IMG/VR virus record: IMGVR_UViG_3300031787_000054
Length of the DNA stretch: 64,000 nucleotides
Direction: 5' to 3' (one strand)
Origin: a virus
Lineage: Duplodnaviria; Heunggongvirae; Uroviricota; Caudoviricetes
The notes under the pieces were generated by a model. That model did no database searches. It saw only the letters and a list, made by a program, of their open reading frames with translations, and had not been told where the DNA came from. Each line of letters begins with the position of its first letter. Positions within the stretch are counted from its first letter, which is position 1. This document shows positions 1 to 60,708 of this stretch, in pieces. The translations under genes were made by a program, and so were the position numbers.

Positions 1-91
1 AGACCATGTAACAGGAATACAAGCTAATGTGCCGTATTCATTGAAGATTGTAGCCTTCAATTAACAACTATTATAGGTCTTTGGAGATTAG

Positions 92-1738
92 ATGGGTCCT
101 ATTATTGATAATAAAATTAAACAACCAGTACAAAATCCTCAACAAAAAAGAGGAACAGGCTTTACTAATTTAGGTAGAATTCTTGGCGCACAAACTGGAA
201 GTAAGGTAGGTTCTGCTGTTGCTGGTGGTATTAGTAATGTCGCTCAACAATCTAGACAAGGAACTGAGTCAGCAAAACAAGAGTTCCAACAAAAAGCACA
301 AGGAAGTAGAGTTGCTTCTTCTCAACAAGGTCAAGAAAAAGGACAAGGTATTGTTAGTCGATTTGGTGTTCAAGCACAACCAGCGACTACTGAACCTACT
401 GCTCAACCAACACAACAAAATGTTGCTCCACAAAATCAACAACAAAGAAAAGAAGCATCTTTAGGAACAGTAATTGGTCCAGCACAATACCAAGGTGATT
501 TTCAAGATTTTACCGATGAAGAAATAGCTGATTATCAAAAATTAGTTTCAGGACAATATTCAGGACCAAGAGACTTAGCAAATCAAGAAGCTCTTCTAGC
601 TAAAGCACAACAAGCTGAGACACTTGGAGGATTAACACAATCTTCTGGTGGTAGAGAAGAATTGCTTCGTCAATTTGTTGGTGGAGGTCAAGGATATACT
701 TCTGGTATGAGTAAGTTAGATCAACTTATTCTAGGTAAACAAGGTAATTTAACTGGTGCTAGAAGAGACACTAGAGGACAAATGAGAAACGTTAGTGAAG
801 CTGCTCAACAAGCACAAGGACTAGCTTCACAGATTAGTGCAGAAGAACAAGCTGCTGCTGATTTAATTAAAGGAAATGTATCTGGAATTGGTTCAACTAT
901 TTCAGGTGATATTGGAAAAAGATTTGAATCTGCTCAAAAGTTTGAAGAAAATAGAGGCAAAATAGCTAACGAGCTACAAAATTTTAAAGGTAACTCAGAC
1001 CAATTAGGCGATTACTTATTCAATAAAGGATTAATAGGTTCTGAAGAACTTAAACAAATAAAAGCTGTTGATCAAGCGAATAAATACGCAGCAGGTCTTG
1101 CTGATCATGAACATGGATTAAAAGATAAAAATGCATATACTGAATCTTATTATAAAAGTAAATTGAATGATTTTATAACAAAAGGTACACAAGCTTCTAG
1201 TGGTTTATCAGAAGCTGGTGTAACAACTGCTGAACAAGCTGCTAGATTACAAGCTTTACAAAAGTTAGGAGCAGGTCAATTTCAACAGTATTTAGGTGAT
1301 GATATAAATAAAGTCGGTTCTTTTCAACAAGGTAAAGTGGGGATTAGTGGTAATGATTTTAATAAGTATTCTGAAAACTTAGCTGAACAATTGTGGAAAG
1401 CTGAACAAAACAGAATTAAAGATCAAATGGGTAAGGCTGAATTTGCTAGAAAAGAAATACCGTCTGGTTATGATTTATATGGTAAGCCTAAATACGATGG
1501 TATAACAAATTATTCAACAATTGATTCAGGAAGAAAAGATATATATGCTGATTACTTAAATCAACTAAGAGGCGATGCTTGGAAACTAAATGGTGCACCA
1601 GATTTAGCTACTCTTAATAAATTAATTAGTTCAGGAAGAGCAGATACTAAAAAACAATTAGAAGCAAATTTAAAACGTTTACAAGAACAAGGTTATGATG
1701 TTAATGATGAACGTTATTTTGATTTTTATAATAAATAG
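92..1738 (+). CDS. Gln/Ala-rich virion-associated protein (putative internal/ejection or tail-associated protein)
   Basis: 548-aa ORF with an RBS-like GGAG upstream. Q/A/G-rich low-complexity composition. First of a co-directional block that ends at a holin. Confidence 0.35.
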   Translation: MGPIIDNKIKQPVQNPQQKRGTGFTNLGRILGAQTGSKVGSAVAGGISNVAQQSRQGTESAKQEFQQKAQGSRVASSQQGQEKGQGIVSRFGVQAQPATTEPTAQPTQQNVAPQNQQQRKEASLGTVIGPAQYQGDFQDFTDEEIADYQKLVSGQYSGPRDLANQEALLAKAQQAETLGGLTQSSGGREELLRQFVGGGQGYTSGMSKLDQLILGKQGNLTGARRDTRGQMRNVSEAAQQAQGLASQISAEEQAAADLIKGNVSGIGSTISGDIGKRFESAQKFEENRGKIANELQNFKGNSDQLGDYLFNKGLIGSEELKQIKAVDQANKYAAGLADHEHGLKDKNAYTESYYKSKLNDFITKGTQASSGLSEAGVTTAEQAARLQALQKLGAGQFQQYLGDDINKVGSFQQGKVGISGNDFNKYSENLAEQLWKAEQNRIKDQMGKAEFARKEIPSGYDLYGKPKYDGITNYSTIDSGRKDIYADYLNQLRGDAWKLNGAPDLATLNKLISSGRADTKKQLEANLKRLQEQGYDVNDERYFDFYNK

Positions 1739-1749
1739 GAGAATATAAT

Positions 1750-2730
1750 ATGGGTCCATTAGCAGCAGCAGGTGTATCAGTTGGTGCACAAGTCGTTGGA
1801 GGAATGTTAGCCAATAACGCTGCATCAGGTGATAGAGCTAGAGCAAATGAATTAGCTGGAGAAGCACTTAGTGTTTTAAAAGACTTAGGATTACCTCCTG
1901 ATTTATCTAGACAGATAATATTCGAACAGTTTACACAACAAGGAATGATGACTCCTGAATTGGAGCAAGAAATTTCTGCTGGTAAATCTGAGTTTGAAGA
2001 CTTCCAAGAAGCACCAGAAATGCGTACAGCACAACTGGAAGCACTACAAGCTCTACAACAAAGAGGTAGGACTGGATTAGGTGCTGAAGATAGAGCTGCT
2101 TTAAATCAAGCTCGTAGAGATGTTCAAAAAGATGCTGAAGCTAAGAGACAACAAATATTAATGGATATGCAAGCTAGAGGACAATCTGGTTCTGGAGCTG
2201 AATTAATTGCTCAATTATCAGGAGCACAAGCTGCACAGGAAACACAAGCAGCTGAATCTGATAGATTAATGTCACAAGCAGCACAAACTGCTCTTCAGTC
2301 AATTCAAAATGCTGGAACTTTAGGCGGTAATATTCGATCACAAGATTACGGTATTCAATCAGAGAAAATGTCAGCAGGTGATGCAATGAATAGATTTAAT
2401 ACTGAATTATCGGCTGGTAGACAACAACGTAATGTTGGTTCAATAAATGAAGCAAGAGCTTCTAATTTAGGTGAAAAACAAAGATTAGCTGATGCTAATA
2501 TTGCAGTAAGAAATGCTGAGAGACAAAGACAACGTGATGCTGAAGCTCAAGAATATGGTTTAAATATGGATAGAGCTAAGTTATTATCTGGTGGATATCA
2601 AGATGCTTCTAAAGTAGCACAAGCTAGAGGTGATACAACAGCTGCTCAAACAATGGCTGTTGCGAATGCTGTTGGTGGAGGAGTTAACTCTTATATGAAA
2701 TGGAACAAAAACGCAGCTAAAAAAGAATAA
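1750..2730 (+). CDS. Ala/Gln-rich helical structural-module protein
   Basis: 326 aa. Tightly spaced after the previous ORF (AGGAGA RBS). Repetitive AQ/EA-rich composition, predicted mostly helical. Confidence 0.3.
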   Translation: MGPLAAAGVSVGAQVVGGMLANNAASGDRARANELAGEALSVLKDLGLPPDLSRQIIFEQFTQQGMMTPELEQEISAGKSEFEDFQEAPEMRTAQLEALQALQQRGRTGLGAEDRAALNQARRDVQKDAEAKRQQILMDMQARGQSGSGAELIAQLSGAQAAQETQAAESDRLMSQAAQTALQSIQNAGTLGGNIRSQDYGIQSEKMSAGDAMNRFNTELSAGRQQRNVGSINEARASNLGEKQRLADANIAVRNAERQRQRDAEAQEYGLNMDRAKLLSGGYQDASKVAQARGDTTAAQTMAVANAVGGGVNSYMKWNKNAAKKE

Positions 2731-2749
2731 CAACCAAAAAGGATAAAAT

Positions 2750-3748
2750 ATGAAACAAAAAACAAAATTTGATGAAGAATTAGATATACCTAAAAATAAG
2801 TCATTAATTAAAACAAACGACGATCTAACTGATATAAGAAATAGATCATTAATTACAACAGACGATGATTTAACTGAATTAACAAAACAAGATATCTCTC
2901 GTAAAATAAGAGAGTTTGACCGAGATACAGACAATACAAAATTATTTCATGAAGTCAGAGAGATGTTAAATCCGATAAATAAAGAAAACGAAATGTATCC
3001 TGAAGGATTTGATACACGTAGTATGTCAGCTACAAAGAACAAAATTAATCCAGATAGGAGAGAACTAAATAAAGAAATGAATCGTATTAATGAATTATAT
3101 CAACAATATGATTTGGAAATGCGAAAAGCAGGGGCTAGTGATATCCAGCGTCAAAAAATGCGTGATATGATGAATGATAAAAAATCTGAGTTAATTGCTG
3201 AGAAAGGTGACGATTTACAGAAATTAAATAAGTTTGGTAAATTAATGAGTAAAGCAAAGAAAGCTCTGCCTGTCGTTGGAGGGATTGCAGCTGGAGTTGG
3301 TGCACTTCAATCAGGAGATGCAGCTGCTGCTGGTATTGATTTCTTAGTTCCCGGTGGGTTAGAGTCAGTTGATGCTGCTCCAGGGTTGGATACAGCGATT
3401 GAAAAGGGACAATTACCTTCTCGTGTTAAAGAATCCATGATGAAGCAACAAGAACAAGCATTAGAGCAATCATACCCAGAAGACACTGATCAAATTAAAC
3501 AAGCACGTCTTGCTGCTGCTAAAAAACTAAAAGAACAACAATTATCTGCTTTTAAAAGAAAAACAGAACAAAATCAAGAAGATGATATGAAAGCAGATAT
3601 TGAAGGTGGAGTAGATCAATATTTCGACCCAAGACAAGAATACTATCCTAGATCTGCTGAAGAAGTTCAAAGACAGTTAATGGAAAATGAACAAGATAGA
3701 AAATTCAGACAATTAATGGGTGAAAGAAGAGTTAATAAACAACTATAA
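2750..3748 (+). CDS. structural-module protein with central Gly/Ala-rich hydrophobic segment
   Basis: 332 aa. GGIAAGVGALQSGDAAAAGIDFLVPGG segment. Same operon as neighbours. Confidence 0.3.
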   Translation: MKQKTKFDEELDIPKNKSLIKTNDDLTDIRNRSLITTDDDLTELTKQDISRKIREFDRDTDNTKLFHEVREMLNPINKENEMYPEGFDTRSMSATKNKINPDRRELNKEMNRINELYQQYDLEMRKAGASDIQRQKMRDMMNDKKSELIAEKGDDLQKLNKFGKLMSKAKKALPVVGGIAAGVGALQSGDAAAAGIDFLVPGGLESVDAAPGLDTAIEKGQLPSRVKESMMKQQEQALEQSYPEDTDQIKQARLAAAKKLKEQQLSAFKRKTEQNQEDDMKADIEGGVDQYFDPRQEYYPRSAEEVQRQLMENEQDRKFRQLMGERRVNKQL

Positions 3749-3765
3749 TAGAAATAGGTTAATAC

Positions 3766-5727
3766 ATGGCTGGAAAAGTAATATCTGAGCTTATTGAAAG
3801 AGTAATGTCTAAAGGTGCTTCAAGAAATGAAGCAGTTGAAGCTGTTGCTAAAACAATGGGCAGAAATGCAGATGAAATCGACGAAGTACTAAAGTATTCA
3901 GATGATATACCTTCATCTCCTATGGGTCAAGGTAAGAACTTAGGTGCTTTACAAGAAGCTAAAGTTGGTGCTCCTGATATTGGTGAAGCTAACGTTGTTA
4001 AACCAGATGCTCCTAGTTATCCTTCGAATATTACACAAGATGAATTAGCTACACGTTCTCCTTTTAAATTAGAAGGCGAACCAGTGACTAAAGATTTTAC
4101 TATGCCAGACCCAGATGCTGGTTTACCTGTTGTTAGAGGCAATACACTTCCTGAAGTTGTAGATATGCCTAAATTACCTGAATACCAAACTAGTATTCCT
4201 AGTCGTCCTAAATTTGATGCACAAGATTATAAAGCACCAACTGGTCCAGATTTAACTCCTCCAAGAAAGGCTCAAGTAAACACTGTTGAATCTTTAGATA
4301 CAAAAACAAGAGATCAAATAGCATTGAATACTCCTTTCAGACCAGATGAAAAAGGTATGTCTGTTAAGAATATACTAACAGGTACTGCTGTAGGATTGGG
4401 AGGTTTATATGGTGCTAATGAATTGTTTGGTGATTCACCTCAACAACAAATACCTTTAGCTTCTAAACCAAATAAAGAAATAACTCCTCCTGTTACAGAA
4501 AATAAACCAGAAGATGCTACTGCACCGAAGAAACCTGTTGACTCTAAGAAAGGAAAACAGAATGTTCAAGGCGAAGTTACACCTCCTGTTGAACCTCCTA
4601 AAACAGAAGAAAAGACTGAACCTAAGTCCAAAGAAGAAGATGTTTTAGATAAATACATGAAGATGATGGACGAAGCTGAACAAAAGCGTCAAGATGGTGA
4701 ATTTATTAATGCTATGTATAGAGCTGGTATTATGGCGGGTTCTGCTATTGCAGGAGTGAAACCAGATTATGCTTTAGTAGATGCTTTAGATAAATTAGTA
4801 GATTCAGATGTTAAACGTGTAAAGAATATGATGGGTACTCAATCTGACGTTAATAAATTAAAACAAGCACGTAAATTAGAATTATTAGAAGAGAAGGCTA
4901 ATGACCCCAATAATGCTTTAGCTGTTAAAGCGACATTAATGATGAAATCTAGAATACCTAATTTTCCAGAAGGTCATTCTGTTGCTGAAATTGAGAAATT
5001 AACAGGACTTAAAGTTTCAACTATTCTAGGATACGAAGAAAATGAAAAGTCAGCGGAAAAAGCTTTTGATAGACAGAAAATGTTAAAACAATTAGAACTT
5101 GAATCAGCTCAGCGTGAAAAAGAAAATCGTTTAGATGAAAGACAAAGAAAGTATGTTTCAGAATTAAGGAAGGAAACAAGAAGCGGTGAACTTGGTAAAA
5201 AATATAGAGAATTTACTAAATTAAATATAATTGGTAAATCTTTAGATGAGTTTGCTAAAAACCCAACAGGGTATTCAGACTATGCAACATTAATGAGTGG
5301 GTTGAAAGGGTTACAAGGAGACGAATCAGTAGTAAGAGAGGCGGAGATTAGATTAGGTATGGAAGCTGGTTCATTTAAAGATCAAATGATGAATCGTATT
5401 GATAGACTTAGAACAGGTAAATCTTTACAACCTGGTCAAAGAGAAGCAATTTCTAATTCAATAAAAATACTTAGTACATTGAATAGACAGAGTTATTTAG
5501 ATTCGATTCAGCCTATTTTAACAAACGCTGAACAAGAAGGAATATCTAAAGATTTAATTATACCTCCAGATGTAATAGAAGCATTGGGCACTGAATACAA
5601 TAAAGATAAAAAAACACAACCAAGTCAAACTAAAACAAAGAAATACTCAACTGGTCAACAAGTTAGAATACGCGGAAAAGTATATAAAGTAGTGAATGAT
5701 AATGGTGACTTAGAGGAAGTTAAGTAA
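3766..5727 (+). CDS. large structural-module protein (Pro/Lys-rich linker, coiled-coil C-terminus)
   Basis: 653 aa. Pro-rich linker (PPVEPPKTEEKTEPK) followed by coiled coil. No recognisable catalytic motif. Confidence 0.3.
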   Translation: MAGKVISELIERVMSKGASRNEAVEAVAKTMGRNADEIDEVLKYSDDIPSSPMGQGKNLGALQEAKVGAPDIGEANVVKPDAPSYPSNITQDELATRSPFKLEGEPVTKDFTMPDPDAGLPVVRGNTLPEVVDMPKLPEYQTSIPSRPKFDAQDYKAPTGPDLTPPRKAQVNTVESLDTKTRDQIALNTPFRPDEKGMSVKNILTGTAVGLGGLYGANELFGDSPQQQIPLASKPNKEITPPVTENKPEDATAPKKPVDSKKGKQNVQGEVTPPVEPPKTEEKTEPKSKEEDVLDKYMKMMDEAEQKRQDGEFINAMYRAGIMAGSAIAGVKPDYALVDALDKLVDSDVKRVKNMMGTQSDVNKLKQARKLELLEEKANDPNNALAVKATLMMKSRIPNFPEGHSVAEIEKLTGLKVSTILGYEENEKSAEKAFDRQKMLKQLELESAQREKENRLDERQRKYVSELRKETRSGELGKKYREFTKLNIIGKSLDEFAKNPTGYSDYATLMSGLKGLQGDESVVREAEIRLGMEAGSFKDQMMNRIDRLRTGKSLQPGQREAISNSIKILSTLNRQSYLDSIQPILTNAEQEGISKDLIIPPDVIEALGTEYNKDKKTQPSQTKTKKYSTGQQVRIRGKVYKVVNDNGDLEEVK

Positions 5728-7811
5728 TGAATATTAATGATTTCAATCAAGATGAAATTGAAGTGATTGGTAACATCAATGATGTTTCAGAAGATGAAAT
5801 TGAACAAATACAACCAACAGCTAGTTCAGTATTAGCTAATAAAGTGTCTGATGTGGCTGGTGATGTTACATCTGGAACAAAAGGAATAACTTCTAGTGCA
5901 ATAGAAGGTGTTCAAGATTTAGGTATGGGGATAGCACAAGGAACCACTTTAGGTGGAGCAGAAGAAATCGGAGCAGGACTCCAAACTCTACTAGCTAAAA
6001 TACTGCCTAATAGTCCATTAGACGTTGATAAACAACTGGCTAAACAAGGATTCACTGGTGACATTACCTCTAGTGCTTCTGACTTTTATAGACAAGCTGA
6101 AAACGAAGAACAAGATCGATATAATAAATCAGAAGAAAGAAGTCCTTTTTTATATGGAGCCGGTGAGTTAGGTGGAGCAATAACTACTGGTGTTGCAACT
6201 GGTGGAGCAGCTTCTTCAATGACTGGTATTGGACAACAAGCTTTAAAAGAAGTAGTGAAACAAGGCGGTAAACAAGCATTAGGTAAAGAAATACTTAAGC
6301 GTGGAGCATTACTAGGTGGAACTGGTGCTATAGAAGGTGGAATCGCTGGTGCTTTAGGTTCTGAGAAAGGTGAACTAATTGGTGCAACTCCTGAAGAAAA
6401 AGAAGCATTAAAAGCAGACACAATTGGTGGAGCAGTAATGGGTGGAACTCTCGGTTTCGGTGGAGGGTTAATAAGTGATATCGGTTCAACTTCTGCTGGT
6501 AAAGCATTAGAAAAAGCAAAACAAGCAACAGGTGAGTTTATTGAAGAAAGACCTTTTCTTCGTAAAATTAAAGAACAATATCAAATGGGTAAAGAAGGAA
6601 TAGACCCATCAAGTGAAAAAGACTTAGGTATCAGAACTCAATTTGATGAAGCTGGTAATGAAATAGTTGGACCTAAGATTTCACAGTATGCACAGAATGA
6701 AGCAACTAAATTAACAAATGAAATTATTGAAGCAAGAAATAAGATAGGTAAAACTGTAGGAGATGCTCTTGATAATGCAGATAAAGCTGGAGTGTCTATT
6801 GACTTAACTAATGAAGTTAAGAACGCAGGTCAACGTATAATGAGTGCTTATGATTTAGCACCGAACATTCTAGTGAACCCTAAAGGTAGAGCTGCATATG
6901 AAAGAATGGTACAAGTTGGACAATCGTCTGTAACTGAAATTAGAGCAGTATTAGATGATATGGATGCTATCTATAATCAATTAGACTCAATTAAAAATAA
7001 AGACACAGCAACTGAATTAACAATGAAAAACATTGCTGATTTCAGAAAACAAGTATCTAATAAATTAAAAGAATCAATACCAGCATATAAACAAGCCGCT
7101 GAGAGATTCCAACGATTCAATGAATTAGTTCCTGAAACAATTATATCTAAAGATAAACCTAGAGAAATATCTGGAGTGTTCTTTGGTAATTTAAAGTCTG
7201 AACAAAAAGATAATAAACTATATGATGCAATAATGGACTTACTAGACAAAGGTACAGCACCTGGTACATCTAGTTTAAAAGCTAAAACAGCATTTACTAA
7301 CATCCTTGATGGATTAAAACAATTCGAAAAAGAAGAGCTACTAAGATTTGGTAAAGGTGAAATATCTGAGCCAGCCTTTAAAAAGAAAGCATTAGACTTT
7401 GAAAAAGAAATTCAGGGTGTTTCTGATAAACTAGGCTCTATTAAATTGGGTATGTTTGAAAGAGCTGACTCTGGTCAACAAGCCAAAGGACTTAATGTTT
7501 TATTTGGTTTAGGTGAAGGATTGGCTGGTACTTCAATGAGAACTGCTAATATCGTAGGTAGAAAAATGGATAAAGTAGCTGATGTTACTAAAGCTATTTA
7601 TAAAATGCCACACAATAAAATGATGGAATTATCTCAGAAGTTAAAAGGAATACCAGGACTGAAAACATACGGTGAATATCTAGAAGAAGGTTTAAACTCT
7701 AATGATTTAAGTAAGAGAAACGCAGCATTATTTACTATTGTTCAAAATCCACAATCAAGAATGTTAATATCAGCAGAAGACTTAGAACAAAGTCCAGTAG
7801 AAGAGGAATAA
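5727..7811 (+). CDS. large Gly-rich protein (putative internal core / tape-measure-like)
   Basis: 694 aa. Start overlaps the upstream stop (TAATG). Gly-rich amphipathic repeats (GGAITTGVATGGAASS, LLGGTGAIEGGIAGALG). Confidence 0.3.
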   Translation: MNINDFNQDEIEVIGNINDVSEDEIEQIQPTASSVLANKVSDVAGDVTSGTKGITSSAIEGVQDLGMGIAQGTTLGGAEEIGAGLQTLLAKILPNSPLDVDKQLAKQGFTGDITSSASDFYRQAENEEQDRYNKSEERSPFLYGAGELGGAITTGVATGGAASSMTGIGQQALKEVVKQGGKQALGKEILKRGALLGGTGAIEGGIAGALGSEKGELIGATPEEKEALKADTIGGAVMGGTLGFGGGLISDIGSTSAGKALEKAKQATGEFIEERPFLRKIKEQYQMGKEGIDPSSEKDLGIRTQFDEAGNEIVGPKISQYAQNEATKLTNEIIEARNKIGKTVGDALDNADKAGVSIDLTNEVKNAGQRIMSAYDLAPNILVNPKGRAAYERMVQVGQSSVTEIRAVLDDMDAIYNQLDSIKNKDTATELTMKNIADFRKQVSNKLKESIPAYKQAAERFQRFNELVPETIISKDKPREISGVFFGNLKSEQKDNKLYDAIMDLLDKGTAPGTSSLKAKTAFTNILDGLKQFEKEELLRFGKGEISEPAFKKKALDFEKEIQGVSDKLGSIKLGMFERADSGQQAKGLNVLFGLGEGLAGTSMRTANIVGRKMDKVADVTKAIYKMPHNKMMELSQKLKGIPGLKTYGEYLEEGLNSNDLSKRNAALFTIVQNPQSRMLISAEDLEQSPVEEE

Positions 7812-43033: not shown

Positions 43034-44107
43034 TTAAGCATAAGAAACACTGTCGTCATTGTTATAAGCATCATACAATAGCTTAAGTTTAGTATCGTAA
43101 TCCATACTGTTTAATACATCTTGTTCATCTTTAGATAAGGTTAAACAATATTGCAACAAAACAGATGACATAGCACTCACTACTGTCATGTCGATCTCAC
43201 TAGCTTTAGATGTCGAAGACGTTGACGATTCCTCTCTTCCGTTCGAGTAAAGCCAGTTCGAACACGAGCTTGATTGTTGACTGGCAAACCTTCTTGAAGA
43301 AGAATATGATTGACGATGAACAAATGTTCTATTAATATCTGTAACACTAATAGGTTCACCTGTGATAGCATCAACTCTCAATAGTTTATTATCGAATAAA
43401 GGGAAGCATAATGGCTTCTTCCATTTCAATTTCTCACAAGTATTCTTAATGATATCATCACTTGTACAAATAATAAAGCCACCGATCTCTTCAACTTGAG
43501 CAATAAAAAGTGGAGCATTGTATTTAAACACATCAAGAATTCTTCTACCATCTGATTGTTTACTAAGAGTAGCAACACCCCAATAACCCTCTAGAGCATC
43601 AGTTGTTTCCTGAATCTTACTTGAGTTATTAGCAACATCATTCTTTAGGTACTCATTCAAGATTGTTTCAGAATCACACGTTGAAATAATATTAGTTAAC
43701 TTATGTGAGTTATTGATAACTCCATTATGAATCAATGCTGTGTCATCAATAATAAAAGGGTGAACATTCTGAAATGTTCTAGCACAAGTAGCCCATCTTG
43801 TATGGAATATAATTGATTTAACATTCTCGAAATTAATATTTCCTGTAGATGAATACTCTGTTTCATCAAGAGCTGTAGGAACTTTATCTTTAATGACACC
43901 CTGATACTTAGCTAACTCAGTCAGTGGTTTTAAGAAAGCTTTAGACACATCAAGAAATCTTTCAGAAAACATATTCCCGTCACCATCAATAGCCGCATAA
44001 CCTAATCCGTGATTATCAGATTTAGTCATGTCAGCTTTAGATGCGAACATAAATTGTTTTGCTTTCAAACCATTTTGAATACCAAACATCACCATTACTT
44101 TACACAT
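43034..44107 (-). CDS. class-II (Ntn) glutamine amidotransferase domain protein
   Basis: Cys at position 2 (MCKV...) as the Ntn nucleophile. HTRWATCARTFQNVHPF...ALIHNGVINN resembles GATase-2 / AsnB N-terminal motifs. Confidence 0.6.
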   Translation of the reverse strand: MCKVMVMFGIQNGLKAKQFMFASKADMTKSDNHGLGYAAIDGDGNMFSERFLDVSKAFLKPLTELAKYQGVIKDKVPTALDETEYSSTGNINFENVKSIIFHTRWATCARTFQNVHPFIIDDTALIHNGVINNSHKLTNIISTCDSETILNEYLKNDVANNSSKIQETTDALEGYWGVATLSKQSDGRRILDVFKYNAPLFIAQVEEIGGFIICTSDDIIKNTCEKLKWKKPLCFPLFDNKLLRVDAITGEPISVTDINRTFVHRQSYSSSRRFASQQSSSCSNWLYSNGREESSTSSTSKASEIDMTVVSAMSSVLLQYCLTLSKDEQDVLNSMDYDTKLKLLYDAYNNDDSVSYA

Positions 44108-44116
44108 ACTTACTCC

Positions 44117-45607
44117 TTATGCAAATTTTAAAATACGGTTATTAATATAATCTAAAGATTGACTTGGGATACCTTCGATATAATTAGGAATCGTTTCAAC
44201 TTTTCTAGGAGAAGATTCTAATTTAGAAGTAGCATTAACAATAGGTAAAATAAAGTTAATCCAATTTAACATATCATCAGTATCTACTGTGCCCTCATGA
44301 ACTCTAATCTCTAATGTTTTATGTCGAGCATAAGACATAGGATTGATAACTAAGTATCTGTCAGATCGTCTACCTCCTGATGTCATGTTTGCTTTGTATT
44401 GATAGTCTTCAATGTTCGGTGACTCAGTTGGTCTACAATAAGTGTTTGATCTTCTTTGTTCTGGTTGTGACTCAACTAAAAACTTTTGAAGCTTAACTAG
44501 ATTATGAAATGCAATTGCTACATCTCTCTTTCTCATATCAAAATGAACATGCAATCCACAACTATTATTTACTGAACACTGTGCTTCTTGTAATGCAACA
44601 CCTAATCTATTTAGGATTTCGATACGATTGTTTTCTGGAACTAATACTCTGATTTCGTGAGTGAAAGGGTATCCATCTGAAGTTCTAAGTGAACCATCTG
44701 ATGTAACATTAGTCCATTTCTGTAACTTGTTTTTAATTAACACCTCTTTTAATTTACCAACGTCAGACTTAGAAATTAATTCAATCTCAATACCAATGAA
44801 TGAATCGTTGTTGTATGGTTTCTTTTCATCATTGATTAGATTCTTTTGAATGTGTTCATACATTTTTAAATACTGTCCATTAGTTTGAGCAACACCATTG
44901 TACAATTCAATAGCACCAAACCTAGTTTCTTTCTTTGTCGGACTAGACTTAACTGCTAATCTTTGTTCACGAAGTTTTTTATTAAGAGCTTGATGTGCTT
45001 TTAATTTAATAGCCTTCAAATCTTTCTTAACGATAGTCACACCATTCTGAACTACTTCAACAGTAGGCATTGGAATTTCTACTTCCAATAGTTTCTTCCC
45101 TACTGTACGTGATGCTCTAACTTTAAGTTCTTGATTCATTAACTTACTTAGCTTCTCACGATTCTCTTTAATCTTTTTAGATAAAGTATTTTCTTTATCA
45201 GTTTTACCTTTAACACCTAGTCGTTGTTGTTCCTTATCAAGAGCTTCTAACTTCTTAGTTTCTTTTAGTAAAGTGAAGAACATTGTGTTCTTATTTTCTT
45301 TAACACTAAATACTTTAATCTTTAAGTCTTTAGGAAATATAACTTTCTTGTATCTTTCAAATACTAAGTTATCTTTCAACACAATGAACTCTGTTCCTTC
45401 TTTAATTAATATCTTTTTACTATCTAACGTAAATGAAATATCTTCGTTCAATATACAACGAACATATTTATTGTTCTTATCAAACTCACCAATGTATTCA
45501 ATCTCTTTTCCAACAAAATAAGGTCCGAGTTTATTCTCTTTGTCCTTATTAATTTTGTAGATAGCACCTAACTCAAATACTTTTGTTTCCATATTACTTA
45601 CCTCCAA
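44117..45607 (-). CDS. glutamine-synthetase-like amidoligase (carboxylate-amine ligase fold) with N-terminal Lys-rich domain
   Basis: C-terminal half carries FIGIEIELIS, CGLHVHFD and LEIRVHEG. These resemble the GxExE / HxH / ExR signatures of the GCS2/YbdK/PafA-type amidoligases. Confidence 0.5.
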   Translation of the reverse strand: MEVSNMETKVFELGAIYKINKDKENKLGPYFVGKEIEYIGEFDKNNKYVRCILNEDISFTLDSKKILIKEGTEFIVLKDNLVFERYKKVIFPKDLKIKVFSVKENKNTMFFTLLKETKKLEALDKEQQRLGVKGKTDKENTLSKKIKENREKLSKLMNQELKVRASRTVGKKLLEVEIPMPTVEVVQNGVTIVKKDLKAIKLKAHQALNKKLREQRLAVKSSPTKKETRFGAIELYNGVAQTNGQYLKMYEHIQKNLINDEKKPYNNDSFIGIEIELISKSDVGKLKEVLIKNKLQKWTNVTSDGSLRTSDGYPFTHEIRVLVPENNRIEILNRLGVALQEAQCSVNNSCGLHVHFDMRKRDVAIAFHNLVKLQKFLVESQPEQRRSNTYCRPTESPNIEDYQYKANMTSGGRRSDRYLVINPMSYARHKTLEIRVHEGTVDTDDMLNWINFILPIVNATSKLESSPRKVETIPNYIEGIPSQSLDYINNRILKFA

Positions 45608-52259: not shown

Positions 52260-52393
52260 AAGACGTTATACTCCTATTTCGGGTGACAACACCCATCATC
52301 AGTAGGGACTCAATTATCCCTAGATAGGGAGCGAGTGGTTAACTCGCCCAAAGATTCATGGCTAGGATAAATACTAGAGAGAGTTTTATAATA

Positions 52394-52576
52394 TTAACTA
52401 GCATGGTTATACTCATTCATTTTAGCATAAGCTTCACTTAGAGTCTTGAATGTTATTTCTTCTTTTTCAGACTCATGATTCTTGAAGTAATGTAATATAT
52501 ATACATTAAGTTCTTGATTATATACTAGTTTACATAAGAAGCCACTAATAGGGTTACTTAACATTTTGATAATCAT
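52394..52576 (-). CDS. hypothetical protein
   Basis: 60-aa ORF. First ORF of the leftward block. Confidence 0.3.
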   Translation of the reverse strand: MIIKMLSNPISGFLCKLVYNQELNVYILHYFKNHESEKEEITFKTLSEAYAKMNEYNHAS

Positions 52577-52819
52577 GTGATTCTCCTAGTTTAAGTATAT
52601 ATTTAATTATATATACAAGAATTTAATTTTAATCTCGACTTGTCAGGTCGATGCCGAGCTATCATTCAAGCCCCATGCCAACTCATTTTCTGAACAAAAT
52701 CAAGCACTTAGCTGTGGTTCACAATGACACCAGTATCGAAAAGTCACCAAAAACAGAGCCAAAATGCCACCAAAGCCAGTATCAAAACAACACCATCTCA
52801 ACAAATTCAAGCACTTAGA

Positions 52820-52856
52820 GCTAAGTACCTGAAATCTCGTAGCATGGTATAATAAG
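52820..52856 (+). promoter_or_regulatory. candidate extended -10 promoter (TGgTATAAT) pointing rightward
   Basis: TGGTATAAT at 52845-52853. Weak -35. Lies immediately before the alternating purine-pyrimidine tract. Confidence 0.3.
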
Positions 52857-52858
52857 AA

Positions 52859-53050
52859 CCCGTGCGTGTGTATTAATACCCGTATGCGTGTGCATATGCC
52901 CCTGCGTGTGTTTTTATATACCTGCGTGAGCGTACGTGCGAGCGTGTGCGTGCATGGGTGTGCAGGTGCGTGTAGGCGTGAGCGTGTGTGTGCATGATGC
53001 GTAGGCGTGTGTGCGAGCGTGTGCGTGCGTATGTGTGCTAGGGGGGGGGT
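52859..53050. repeat. GC-rich alternating purine-pyrimidine (GCGTGTG)n-like tract ending in G9
   Basis: Degenerate CGTG/TGCG repeats over about 190 nt in an otherwise AT-rich genome. G9 run at 53041-53049. The ORF 52700-53089 across it is a translation artefact. Confidence 0.7.
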
Positions 53051-53280
53051 ACACCCTTCGTGGTTCAGGGTGACATTGACCGAGTACATTCACTCACTTT
53101 ACCCTCTCAACTATAGAAACCAGTAACCCTTCACCCTACTACTCATTCACAACCTTTATAACAACTCTTAGTATAATAGCCTCTAAAACGAACAAAAACA
53201 GGGTTATTTGATACTTTAGTATATAGACCTAATAGTTAGTATTAAAGCTTCTAAAACCTCTTTAAAAGGATATTAAGCTT

Positions 53281-53865
53281 ATGTTTAGTATATTTGATTT
53301 AAGTAATCTAGACAATGTTCCATTACAGGGTATAATAGCTCTTATAAACGATTCTGATAAGAAGGTATACCTAACACAGGGTTCTAACATTCCAGTGCTT
53401 CTAGGCAAGATTATAAGCGAAATAAAGCAGGGTATTCATACTCACCAAGAATTATGTGATGATTATAAGAAATTAAAAGCTATGGTTATAGAAACACAAA
53501 CCGACATTACACATAGGTACTTACACATGTCTTACTGGTATGATTACTTTGAAGCTAATGGATATAAGCTATATACTAAAAAGAATCATTTGAGTTATAA
53601 GGTTAGTAAAGGTTTAGTACATGTAGGAAGAAGTAGTACAAAGCTAGTCGTTGAAGTTTATTTAGTAAATAGTAGATGTGAAAAGACAGTAGTAGGAGTA
53701 TTCGAAACAATACAACAAGCTGATGAGTTTATAGAAACTTACTACACACAGGACAATAAATATAAGCTACCAATACTAGCTAACAACAAGTTGACTATGG
53801 CACACTATCTATCAAAAACGAGTCGAAGGAGCGAAGCGACTGACGCAGTTACTATGGATAGGTAG
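53281..53865 (+). CDS. hypothetical protein
   Basis: 194 aa. First gene of the rightward block. Confidence 0.45.
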   Translation: MFSIFDLSNLDNVPLQGIIALINDSDKKVYLTQGSNIPVLLGKIISEIKQGIHTHQELCDDYKKLKAMVIETQTDITHRYLHMSYWYDYFEANGYKLYTKKNHLSYKVSKGLVHVGRSSTKLVVEVYLVNSRCEKTVVGVFETIQQADEFIETYYTQDNKYKLPILANNKLTMAHYLSKTSRRSEATDAVTMDR

Positions 53866-53955
53866 ATAGTTAGTAATTAAAAACTAAACACCAACCAAGT
53901 TGTTATTTAGGTACATATTTACTTATATTATATTATTATATGTATAGGTAATATT

Positions 53956-54011
53956 TTGACCCACCTACTGGTTCTGGATTGACCCACCTCTGGGTCTAGT
54001 TTGACCCACCT
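53956..54011. repeat. three direct repeats of TTGACCCACCT spaced 22-23 nt apart
   Basis: Copies at 53956-53966, 53979-53989 and 54001-54011. An AT-rich stretch lies upstream and a promoter downstream. Confidence 0.7.
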
Positions 54012-54027
54012 AAAGTGAATGTTTTTG

Positions 54028-54070
54028 AAAAAAGTTCTTGACAAAAATATAAAAGTGTGGTATTGTAGAA
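54028..54070 (+). promoter_or_regulatory. same promoter family on the plus strand (AAGTTCTTGACAAA-N17-TATTGT)
   Basis: TTGACA at 54038-54043. TATTGT at 54061-54066. Located 60 nt upstream of the gene at 54128. Confidence 0.55.
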
Positions 54071-57990: not shown

Positions 57991-58435
57991 TAACACATTA
58001 GATCAGTTATCTAAGAAATTCTCTACAGTTGAAGAATTACAAACATATTGTGATTCTCAATTCAAAATTATCCAGAAATTAACTAAACAATTAAATGATT
58101 CTAAGAAAGAAATTGACGAGTTAAAAGAAAAATATATTAAGTTAAAGGAAGCAAAGCCTTCACCTGAAGCTATTAAGTTAAGTAATGGGTCATTAGGTCA
58201 ATTAGGTGTAACAGACGAAGAAGCTATATGTGTTATGCAGTTAAACTTCCTAAAACAAATAGCGGTTGTTAGAGAATTGACACTAGAAGAATCTAAGAAA
58301 GTTGAGATTTACGTTAAAACACTTAATACTATTAGAAATGTACCTAAAAAGATAGAGTTAGAAACTAAAGACATGAGTAATGAACAATTAATTAAGCTCA
58401 TTGAAGCATCGGTTGATAGTTTTGATAAACAATAA
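57983..58435 (+). CDS. coiled-coil protein (terminase small subunit candidate)
   Basis: 150 aa. Directly upstream of, and overlapping, the terminase large subunit start. Confidence 0.35.
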   Translation: MANNTLDQLSKKFSTVEELQTYCDSQFKIIQKLTKQLNDSKKEIDELKEKYIKLKEAKPSPEAIKLSNGSLGQLGVTDEEAICVMQLNFLKQIAVVRELTLEESKKVEIYVKTLNTIRNVPKKIELETKDMSNEQLIKLIEASVDSFDKQ

Positions 58436-59967: not shown

Positions 59968-60708
59968 ATGTTAAAGTTACTAGGCAGCTCATTAAAATGG
60001 TTAAGTCTGTCATTATTGGTTCTTTTTATTTCAGTTAATGCTAATAGATTACACGAATCTTATTTGTTAGATTATATTGGAAACCAAGTAGTTATGGTTA
60101 CAAATGGTAATGGAGGAGGAACTGGATTTCATGTTGAAGCTCCTTCAGGAGATGTTTATATTTTAAGCAATAGACATGTGTGTGCTGTAAAGGATGATAA
60201 TAACTTTGTAACTATCATTACACAAGATGGTAGATCACATAAGAAAAAAGTAATTAAGGAATATAAAAAACACGACTTATGTTTAATTGAACCTGTTCGT
60301 GGATACTCTGGATTGGAATTAACTGAACAAAATGATTTACATTCTAAATTATATATTGTAGGTCATCCAGGATTAAGACCACTTACTTTATCTAGTGGAC
60401 ATTATATTGGAGACGACACAATTTCAATTTCTTCTCCTAATGTTGAAAAGAAAAACTGTAATGGTAAATTTGAAAAGATTCCAGAAAACTCACTTGAATA
60501 CTTCTTTTTTGGATTACAATCAATATGTGTTAATTATTTTGATAGTTATATGACAGATGCTCCTGTTTATGGTGGAAATAGCGGTTCACCGATGGTTGAT
60601 GCTAGAGGTAACGTTTGGGGAGTAGTATTCGCTAAATCAATGAACGCTGTTCACAATGGTTATATTGTTCCTATTGATTTTGTTAAGGATTTTTTAAAGA
60701 AATATTAA
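59968..60708 (+). CDS. secreted trypsin-fold serine protease (S1B/glutamyl-endopeptidase-like)
   Basis: Signal peptide. His in SNRHVC, Asp in KHDLCLIE, Ser in GGNSGSPMV (the GNSGSP variant typical of V8/Spl/exfoliative-toxin-type S1B enzymes). Confidence 0.65.
   Translation: MLKLLGSSLKWLSLSLLVLFISVNANRLHESYLLDYIGNQVVMVTNGNGGGTGFHVEAPSGDVYILSNRHVCAVKDDNNFVTIITQDGRSHKKKVIKEYKKHDLCLIEPVRGYSGLELTEQNDLHSKLYIVGHPGLRPLTLSSGHYIGDDTISISSPNVEKKNCNGKFEKIPENSLEYFFFGLQSICVNYFDSYMTDAPVYGGNSGSPMVDARGNVWGVVFAKSMNAVHNGYIVPIDFVKDFLKKY

Follow-up and report, generated by a model that had tools for sequence, protein, structure and literature searches.

We analyzed a GC-rich tract of alternating purines and pyrimidines at positions 52859–53050 of a 64,000-nt stretch of DNA (hereafter, the window) from an uncultured tailed phage (IMG/VR record IMGVR_UViG_3300031787_000054), together with the run of nine guanines (G9) that closes it. 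We read the tract as a duplex-DNA element and not as an RNA, a gene or an artefact, namely as a fast-evolving array of repeats with a GCGTG core. With a probability of roughly one in three (about 0.35), judged from sequence comparison, the tract, placed between divergent promoters and an AT-rich zone flanked by iterons, serves as a buffer or gate of torsional stress or as a binding site for a regulator. What is truly conserved is the adjacent poly-G module and not the tract.

The tract lies within a 704-nt non-coding spacer between a leftward gene block (8638–52576) and a rightward block that begins at 53281, in agreement with the initial annotation, which had placed it at the point of divergence; a further rightward block occupies positions 1–7811. 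On the plus strand, its 192 nt comprise 78 G, 56 T, 35 C and 23 A. In 120-nt sliding windows over the 64 kb, GC content reached its maximum of 0.64 in the tract (mean 0.321, standard deviation 0.05), and the eight highest values all fell there. Purine/pyrimidine alternation, also in 120-nt windows, had its highest value in the tract as well (0.83; mean 0.472, standard deviation 0.053). The G9 is the sole run of six or more G or C in the window, and a scan that scores alternating CG/TG steps returned one segment in the whole window, 52930–53038, a 109-nt core with a GC content of 0.63 and an alternation of 0.86. This core shows the alternating CG and CA/TG steps over at least ~12 bp that characterize Z-forming DNA. 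Hence, the initial description of a GC-rich alternating tract that ends in G9 and has no similar counterpart elsewhere in the window was borne out, as was that of an extended -10 element upstream, which is found 5 nt before the tract. The alternation had been called almost perfect, which is an overstatement, as it amounts to 0.77 for all 192 nt and to 0.86 for the core. Potential for a G-quadruplex found no further support, with a single G run only.

Internally, the tract has two parts (Table 1). In the first, Tandem Repeats Finder (TRF) detected a period of 20 nt with 2.8 copies (52858–52911; also listed as repeat D5), and GCGTG motifs follow each other at spacings of 22, 18, 20 and 18 nt. 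In the right two thirds of the tract the spacing is irregular (6–23 nt), and the second part reaches the G9 via CTA.

The window genotype was found exactly in assemblies from ENA, Logan and JGI, in at least 10 samples. Six contigs from six independent samples (L006, L007, L008/L030, L031, L034 and L035) span the tract with 100% identity over 705 nt or over 52301–53400 (1,100 nt), and partial contigs from other samples are likewise identical. The sole difference among contigs of this genotype is a G10 in place of G9 in L037; the same length difference occurs in the L025–L029 clade, and sequencing error is possible. The doubt raised initially, that the tract might be an assembly artefact, is thereby settled, as it is base-for-base identical in six independent assemblies and has a homologous counterpart in L001, a related contig. 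The tract was also rejected as coding sequence: its open reading frames (ORFs) of 129, 59, 43 and 40 aa translate, on both strands, into low-complexity strings of His, Thr, Arg and Cys. The longest (52700–53089, minus strand) is publicly annotated as a gene (L006 9420–9809 and others) and is almost certainly spurious, because its translation is a low-complexity His/Thr/Arg string.

Relatives were gathered from IMG/VR, JGI, ENA and Logan by TerL, by a profile of gene 1 (the first gene of the rightward block) and by a pattern scan for the poly-G motif, which added L145; the metagenome scan with the gene-1 profile contributed only three loci. L001, with a TerL 89% identical to that of the window, has a homologous tract in the same place, which ends in GGGGGGTAGGG and differs by indels. 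The alignable part of the tract is 53% identical between the two, and the non-coding blocks at 52633–52745 (83.5%) and 53071–53121 (92%) exceed the flanking coding sequence (60–68%) in identity. In distant relatives, whose gene 1 is 28–35% identical, the constant feature is a poly-G of 6–10 nt, usually followed by TAGGG. The poly-G is located 190–240 nt upstream of gene 1 in L011–L014, L024–L029 and L145, and upstream of a few inserted genes in L003/L022; its length is G6 in L001 and G7 in L014. The 190 nt separating it from gene 1 are largely invariant in five lineages. A (C/G)TATAGAAAC box lies 47–65 nt past the poly-G in all relatives, and CACGCAAATT, ~45 nt past it, is common to this first family. 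The conserved setting is a non-coding region of 0.7–1.4 kb containing lineage-specific repeats, G6–G10(TAGGG) and, ~60 nt on, the promoter-like TATAGAAAC box, followed by a GIY-YIG-like first gene.

In each locus having an alternating CG/TG segment (six lineages), this segment is the only high-scoring one and is situated upstream of the poly-G, at a distance of 3–254 nt. Its plus strand is rich in G in the window (109 nt), L001 (106 nt), L013 (48 nt) and L024 (43 nt), and rich in C in L014 (39 nt) and L025 (21 nt); L003 and L012, the latter close to L025, have none (0 nt). Perfectly alternating runs in the relatives measure 21–29 nt. Alternating GC richness at this spot is thus conserved, and its sequence, length, exact position and strand are not. 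Such conservation speaks for a duplex property or for an array of degenerate binding sites, and it speaks against an RNA. As an RNA element the tract was indeed rejected. Rfam returned no match at the gathering threshold, and the only match with E ≤ 1, to mir-297, is a chance one; folding z-scores of the plus strand were -0.02 and +0.35, no better than shuffled sequence; alignments around the poly-G yielded no consensus structure and no covariation; the left block and the poly-G leader gave no RNA structure signal; and the strand is not conserved.

To estimate Z-DNA potential, dinucleotide B-Z energies were taken from Table 1 of Zhabinskaya and Benham (PMC3024258) and applied in a simplified two-state, single-run model with a 5-kb domain. 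All five segments with the highest Z propensity in the 64 kb fall within the tract, and their transition sets in at superhelical densities (sigma) of -0.042 to -0.048, consistent with the Z-forming potential proposed in the initial annotation. In L013, L014, L024 and L025 the tract is the top B-Z site of the locus, at sigma -0.036 to -0.039. According to this model, the advantage of the tract would be mainly its capacity (~120 bp) and not the ease of the transition. In the twin-domain model, transcription-driven negative supercoiling is expected between divergent promoters. The predicted onset would be within reach of such supercoiling, which makes Z-formation plausible.

In the mechanism we propose, the spacer would be a compound control region from which both halves of the genome are transcribed away. 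Its skeleton would consist, in order, of direct repeats serving as protein-binding iterons, the poly-G(TAGGG), the TATAGAAAC box ~60 nt on and the first rightward gene. The tract would act via its physical properties, as a dense binding array, or both. With the rightward promoter about 70–260 nt downstream of it and the leftward promoters on its left, it would occupy the place where divergent transcription accumulates negative supercoiling. There it would flip to Z-DNA and resist melting, so that the torsional stress on the early promoters and on the AT-rich DNA would be buffered or gated. The adjacent AT-rich, iteron-flanked DNA is the best candidate for a replication origin. The region contains direct repeats of 20 nt (2.8 copies) and 23 nt (2.6 copies) and a 23-nt pair, in keeping with the at least three direct repeats of ~17–23 bp expected of an iteron origin. 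From this arrangement we infer protein binding, Z-formation in vivo, promoter coupling and origin function.

Iteron-type origins are known from lambda (ori) and from the plasmids RK2 and pPS10 (oriV), the latter with iterons, an AT-rich and a GC-rich segment. As in these, ~20-nt direct repeats in the window adjoin a GC-rich block and a stretch very rich in AT, the repeats differ by lineage while structural parts are shared, and the site, flanked by divergent blocks, coincides with the cumulative GC-skew minimum (52–53 kb). Unlike in these origins, the GC block is an alternating CG/TG microsatellite plus a homopolymer, and neither an initiator gene nor a DnaA box was recognized. Rahmouni and Wells reportedly observed in 1989 that (CG)n/(TG)n tracts between divergent promoters flip to Z-DNA under transcription-driven negative supercoiling. 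The tract belongs to the same dinucleotide class, is likewise located between divergent promoters and upstream of them, and is the best predicted B-Z site in the window and in each relative's locus; unlike those tracts it is natural and imperfect, with many phase breaks and a predicted onset no better than sigma ~-0.042. We know of no phage role for Z-DNA, and a literature search found nothing relevant on the poly-G motif or on Z-DNA origins in phages.

Several observations weigh against a torsional or regulatory role of the tract next to an origin. Its predicted onset of -0.042 is barely ahead of chance sites of 8–12 bp elsewhere (-0.050), and its alternation is interrupted ~15 times. Absence from related genomes, which the initial annotation had held would refute a function, applies to some of them: L003/L022 and L011/L012 are devoid of the tract and retain the poly-G, and L001, L013, L014, L024 and L025 possess it. 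Because the poly-G persists where the tract is missing, the tract is dispensable for the role of the region. No DnaA box with up to one mismatch was found in 52300–53500 and no initiator gene among the neighboring ORFs, and the GC-skew minimum is confounded by gene orientation, as it coincides with the orientation switch. The AT-rich zone adjoins the repeats but would also house the leftward promoter, and it is poorly conserved. Finally, a similar poly-G module adjoins terS/terL in a second family, which points to a function in packaging or at a late promoter and not in replication.

This second family came to light in a scan for G9TAGGG, which matched at least 120 loci, 22 of them with shared flanks among the matches listed (Table 1). 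The pattern consists of G9–10 TAGGGCC, ~35 variable nt, CC(A/G)CG(A/C)AA and a T-rich run (~45 nt on), and in at least 22 IMG/VR contigs it is found 90–130 nt upstream of terL. Lineage-specific short repeats precede the poly-G directly, GC content is 46–60%, and the TerL of this family and the TerL of the window are unrelated. (GT)n-GCGCAC directly follows the poly-G in L060, L061 and L124, and GC-rich repeats precede it in L117. A degenerate G-rich version is present upstream of terS in the metagenome-assembled phage DSL-LC05, and between terS and terL in the cultured Ralstonia phages RpY1 and DU_RP_II. The SPAdes contig of virion DNA from PBa1, a related phage, begins with terL and ends with terS (PMC13452375). 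The second family extends the module beyond one family and keeps a role in packaging or at a late promoter alive.

The initial annotation had considered a genome terminus, an origin or a packaging signal, and each of these may apply; contigs do end at the G run (L009, L032), but six assemblies read through it without interruption. As a packaging signal or genome end, poly-G(TAGGG) would be a cos- or pac-like site of terminase cleavage or recognition, with the repeats and the GC tract as terminase-binding or structural flanks. We regard this as unlikely. It fits the observation that, in sample SRR31534951, contig L032 ends at 53049 (the last G) and L009 begins at 53041 (the first G), that the long contigs L004 and L002 begin inside the same spacer, and that the module of the second family and its degenerate versions adjoin the terminase genes. 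A GC-rich invariant core with lineage-specific repeats and AT-rich flanks also recalls cosN and cosB of lambda and the HK97-type cos. However, L009 and L032 both keep the full G9, and G10 occurs in L037 and L025; such length heterogeneity would create a de Bruijn branch that gives abutting contigs of this kind. In an IMG/VR sample, 85 of 132 runs of G14 or longer were within 150 nt of a locus end, so that poly-G breaks assemblies generally; TAGGG followed none of the 47 internal runs of this length. One 57-kb contig (L107/L149) has the G-run motif at either end. Other breaks are scattered (L033 at 52952, L036 at 52759, L028 and L019). In the 84.9-kb contig of L001 a terminal repeat is missing, as the first 40 nt do not recur, and the contig starts at an ordinary gene start, equivalent to 46832 of the window. 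Unlike cos, the site is separated from terL (at 58435) by 5.4 kb and ~12 genes, a homopolymer is a poor cohesive end and no unique overhang, and the module is shared by phages with unrelated TerL proteins, which is unexpected of a terminase-specific site. Homopolymer assembly failure explains the contig breaks at least as well as a terminus, and a genome terminus at the poly-G is not favored.

Three further explanations concern the tract and the poly-G within the spacer. The GCGTG repeats could be operator or activator sites, with the poly-G setting their helical phase relative to the TATAGAAAC promoter and G9/G10 slippage varying early rightward expression heritably; this seems doubtful to us. 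The distance from poly-G to the box is confined to 47–65 nt in all relatives, the 18–22 nt phasing in the first third of the tract is like that of three 22-nt iterons before a promoter at 54039–54068, and, in two clades, contigs that are otherwise identical vary in nothing but G9/G10. Poly-G lengths cluster at 9–10, the range of known phase-variable tracts, such as those upstream of promoters in Neisseria, Haemophilus and Campylobacter, which are intergenic like this one. Against it, no regulator was identified, spacing in most of the tract is irregular, strand and position switch between lineages, the poly-G has only six or seven residues in L001 and L014, the G9/G10 difference may be a sequencing or assembly error, and, unlike in the bacterial cases, the poly-G is outside the -35/-10 spacer of a lytic-looking phage. 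Neutral origin by microsatellite-like slippage in a region free of coding constraint is improbable in our judgment. Tract lengths from 0 to 109 nt, gain or loss between close relatives (21 nt in L025, none in L012) and the poor identity to L001 speak for it; recurrence in six lineages at a single place, with no other instance in up to 64 kb, a GC content of 64% against 32% for the genome, whose mutation pressure should erode the tract, and identity in samples across many JGI, ENA and SRA projects speak against it. An R-loop origin, primed by transcription from the extended -10 element with the RNA hybridized up to the G run, or a functional GU-rich leader RNA is highly improbable. The promoter 5 nt upstream, the 78 G versus 35 C of the non-template plus strand, the same order of TATAAT and tract in L013 and L025, and the location at the GC-skew minimum speak for it. 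At the mitochondrial conserved sequence block II (CSBII) and ColE1, too, a promoter precedes a non-template strand that is rich in G and closes with a G run. Unlike at those sites, the strand bias is not kept among relatives (C-rich in L014 and L025), the tract is missing from L012 and L003, and RNA folding is no better than shuffled and without covariation.

The elements of the control region and the loci in relatives are collected in Table 1.

Table 1. Features of the control region in the window and of related loci (positions refer to the window unless a locus is given).
Feature	Position	Strand	Basis or remark
First gene of leftward block, 60 aa	52394–52576	-	ORF list; exact protein on 14 contigs; left edge of the non-coding region
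Very AT-rich zone	52585–52632		Read from sequence; 50% identical to L001
Left conserved non-coding block	52633–52745		Most conserved on the left side (L001)
Hairpin TCGAC-ttgtcag-GTCGA	52635–52651		Alignment; kept in L001 via two compensatory changes (TCAGC/GCTGA)
23-nt direct repeats ACCAGTATCAAAAAGCCACCAAA, iteron-like	52729–52787		TRF, 2.6 copies; repeat D7
12-bp hairpin then TTTGTTG, terminator-like	52806–52833	-	Terminator scan; two G-U pairs only on minus strand
Extended -10 element TGGTATAAT	52845–52853	+	Sequence; reads rightward into the tract
Tract, part 1	52858–52918		Three ~20-nt units, ACCCGTGCGTGTG / ACC(C)GTGCGTGTG + AT-rich spacer
Tract, part 2	52919–53040		Degenerate GCGTGY core, GC 0.63, alternation 0.86; TRF period 6, 13.8 copies
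Poly-G (G9)	53041–53049		More conserved in the phage family than any other feature of the region; G9 or G10 in otherwise identical assemblies
Right conserved block, ending in CTATAGAAAC (53111–53120)	53071–53121	+	Identity to L001
Sigma-70-like promoter TTCACA-17-TAGTAT/TATAAT	53146–53177	+	Promoter scan; proximal to gene 1
Gene 1, 194 aa, first of rightward block	53281–53865	+	GIY-YIG-fold N-terminal domain; syntenic with poly-G in all relatives
Sigma-54 site arrays in relatives	L012:5610–5777, L013:3839–4070, L025:3581–3763, L145:2423–2548	mostly - (leftward)	Consensus sites
~650-nt GC-rich segment in relatives	L025:2800–3470 (-), L012:4832–5500, L014:4736–5400, L024:2640–3420		Candidate structured RNA
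Second-family module	L127:4884–4971 (-)	-	Also 21 other IMG/VR loci (L040, L042, L060–L062, L066, L068, L074, others)

On the left side, the AT-rich zone at 52585–52632 probably contains the sigma-70-type leftward promoter and is a candidate unwinding element, judging from its sequence. The left conserved block contains one copy of a 23-nt repeat, TCTGAACAAAATCAAGCACTTAG (repeat D2, the 23-nt pair), and a degenerate sigma-54-like site, TGGCATGGGGCTTGAA (52665–52680, minus strand), that fails the GC core. In relatives, the same zone carries sites matching the sigma-54 consensus (TGGCAY-N5-TTGCW, with GG-N10-GC spacing), five or six of them perfect, up to 245 nt upstream of the poly-G in L012, L013, L025 and L145. 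Perfect sites are absent elsewhere in those loci, against a background of 11 sites in 2.0 Mb of unrelated viral contigs. What look like iterons upstream of the poly-G in L012, L013 and L025 are these sigma-54 sites, of which the window has one degenerate copy only. The perfect sites suggest a zone packed with promoter or protein-binding elements, and the arrays could be tandem sigma-54 promoters or a sigma-54 sink. A counterpart of the extended -10 element, TATAAT(GTAAC), immediately precedes the GC tract in L013 and L025.

On the right side, the CTATAGAAAC box, 61 nt past the poly-G, has its sole exact copy in the window here. It is probably the -10/start region of a rightward promoter, because TA(T/G)AGAAAC also follows the consensus promoter at 54039–54068; on that numbering, the poly-G would occupy about -65 to -75 and the tract about -75 to -260. 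A role of CTATAGAAAC as a promoter throughout the phage genome was rejected for lack of enrichment (10 matches versus 9.1 expected). A second site of like design is located at 53955–54068, where three 22-nt repeats TGACCCACCT (TTGACCCACCT...) stand directly upstream of the consensus promoter, TTGACA-17(TG)-TATTGT followed by AGAAAC; the site is conserved in L001:5864–5975. The 22-nt repeat core resembles the GACCCACTGGGT iterons of phage DSL-LC05. The N-terminal domain of gene 1 matched I-TevI in Foldseek with a target template modeling (TM) score of 0.68–0.77 and a probability of 1.0 (pLDDT of the model, 78.6), and gene 1 had no Pfam or PHROG match. Neither the first Tyr of GIY nor the catalytic Arg is conserved, and the predicted protein may therefore be a non-catalytic DNA binder.

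In relatives, the control region is separated from the leftward genes by a ~650-nt GC-rich segment that has no credible ORF and is missing in the window. On the minus strand, RNAalifold predicted 107 pairs, 41 of which are kept via changes on both sides. Among them are hairpins with conserved loops whose stems covary fully, several G-U pairs form only on the minus strand, and Rfam gave no match. This segment is a candidate for a new large structured RNA.

The leftward block encodes DNA polymerase, primase-helicase, ribonucleotide reductase, NAMPT, ligase and amidoligase, and the second rightward block consists of ~12 small genes followed by TerL (58435), a protease and the portal. A nucleotide search of INPHARED, in near and distant mode, gave no match to the window, and the TerL is at most 27% identical to that of any cultured phage. 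No tRNA or tmRNA was found in the window, and comparison of TerL with the PDB gave no information on packaging type. An amidoligase gene (PF12224) and an adjoining glutamine amidotransferase-like gene are located at 43034–45607 in the leftward block, and relatives carry alliinase-like/aminotransferase and HD-domain genes near the control region; these genes hint at a modification of nucleotides or DNA. Unusually placed, between terL and portal (59968–60708), is a gene for a trypsin-like serine protease (PF13365).

In this phage family, the early control region between the divergent blocks probably doubles as the origin. In a wider and rather speculative interpretation, which we consider unlikely as it stands, poly-G(9–10)-TAGGG with lineage-specific repeats, often with a Z-DNA-prone CG/TG microsatellite, would be an undescribed cis-module that is widespread in environmental phages, in two families or more whose terminases are unrelated. 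The module would switch DNA structure, through a supercoil-sensing B-Z transition or homopolymer slippage, at the point from which early divergent transcription, replication initiation or packaging is launched. To our knowledge, phage control regions have furnished essentially no documented case of a functional switch made of Z-DNA or of a homopolymer. For assemblies of these genomes, the poly-G accounts for recurrent contig breaks and should be taken as a genome end only with read-level evidence. The position of the module is conserved across a family of ~84-kb uncultured phages, and an apparently related form occurs in a family of ~36–42 kb, which opens it to comparative and wet-lab work.

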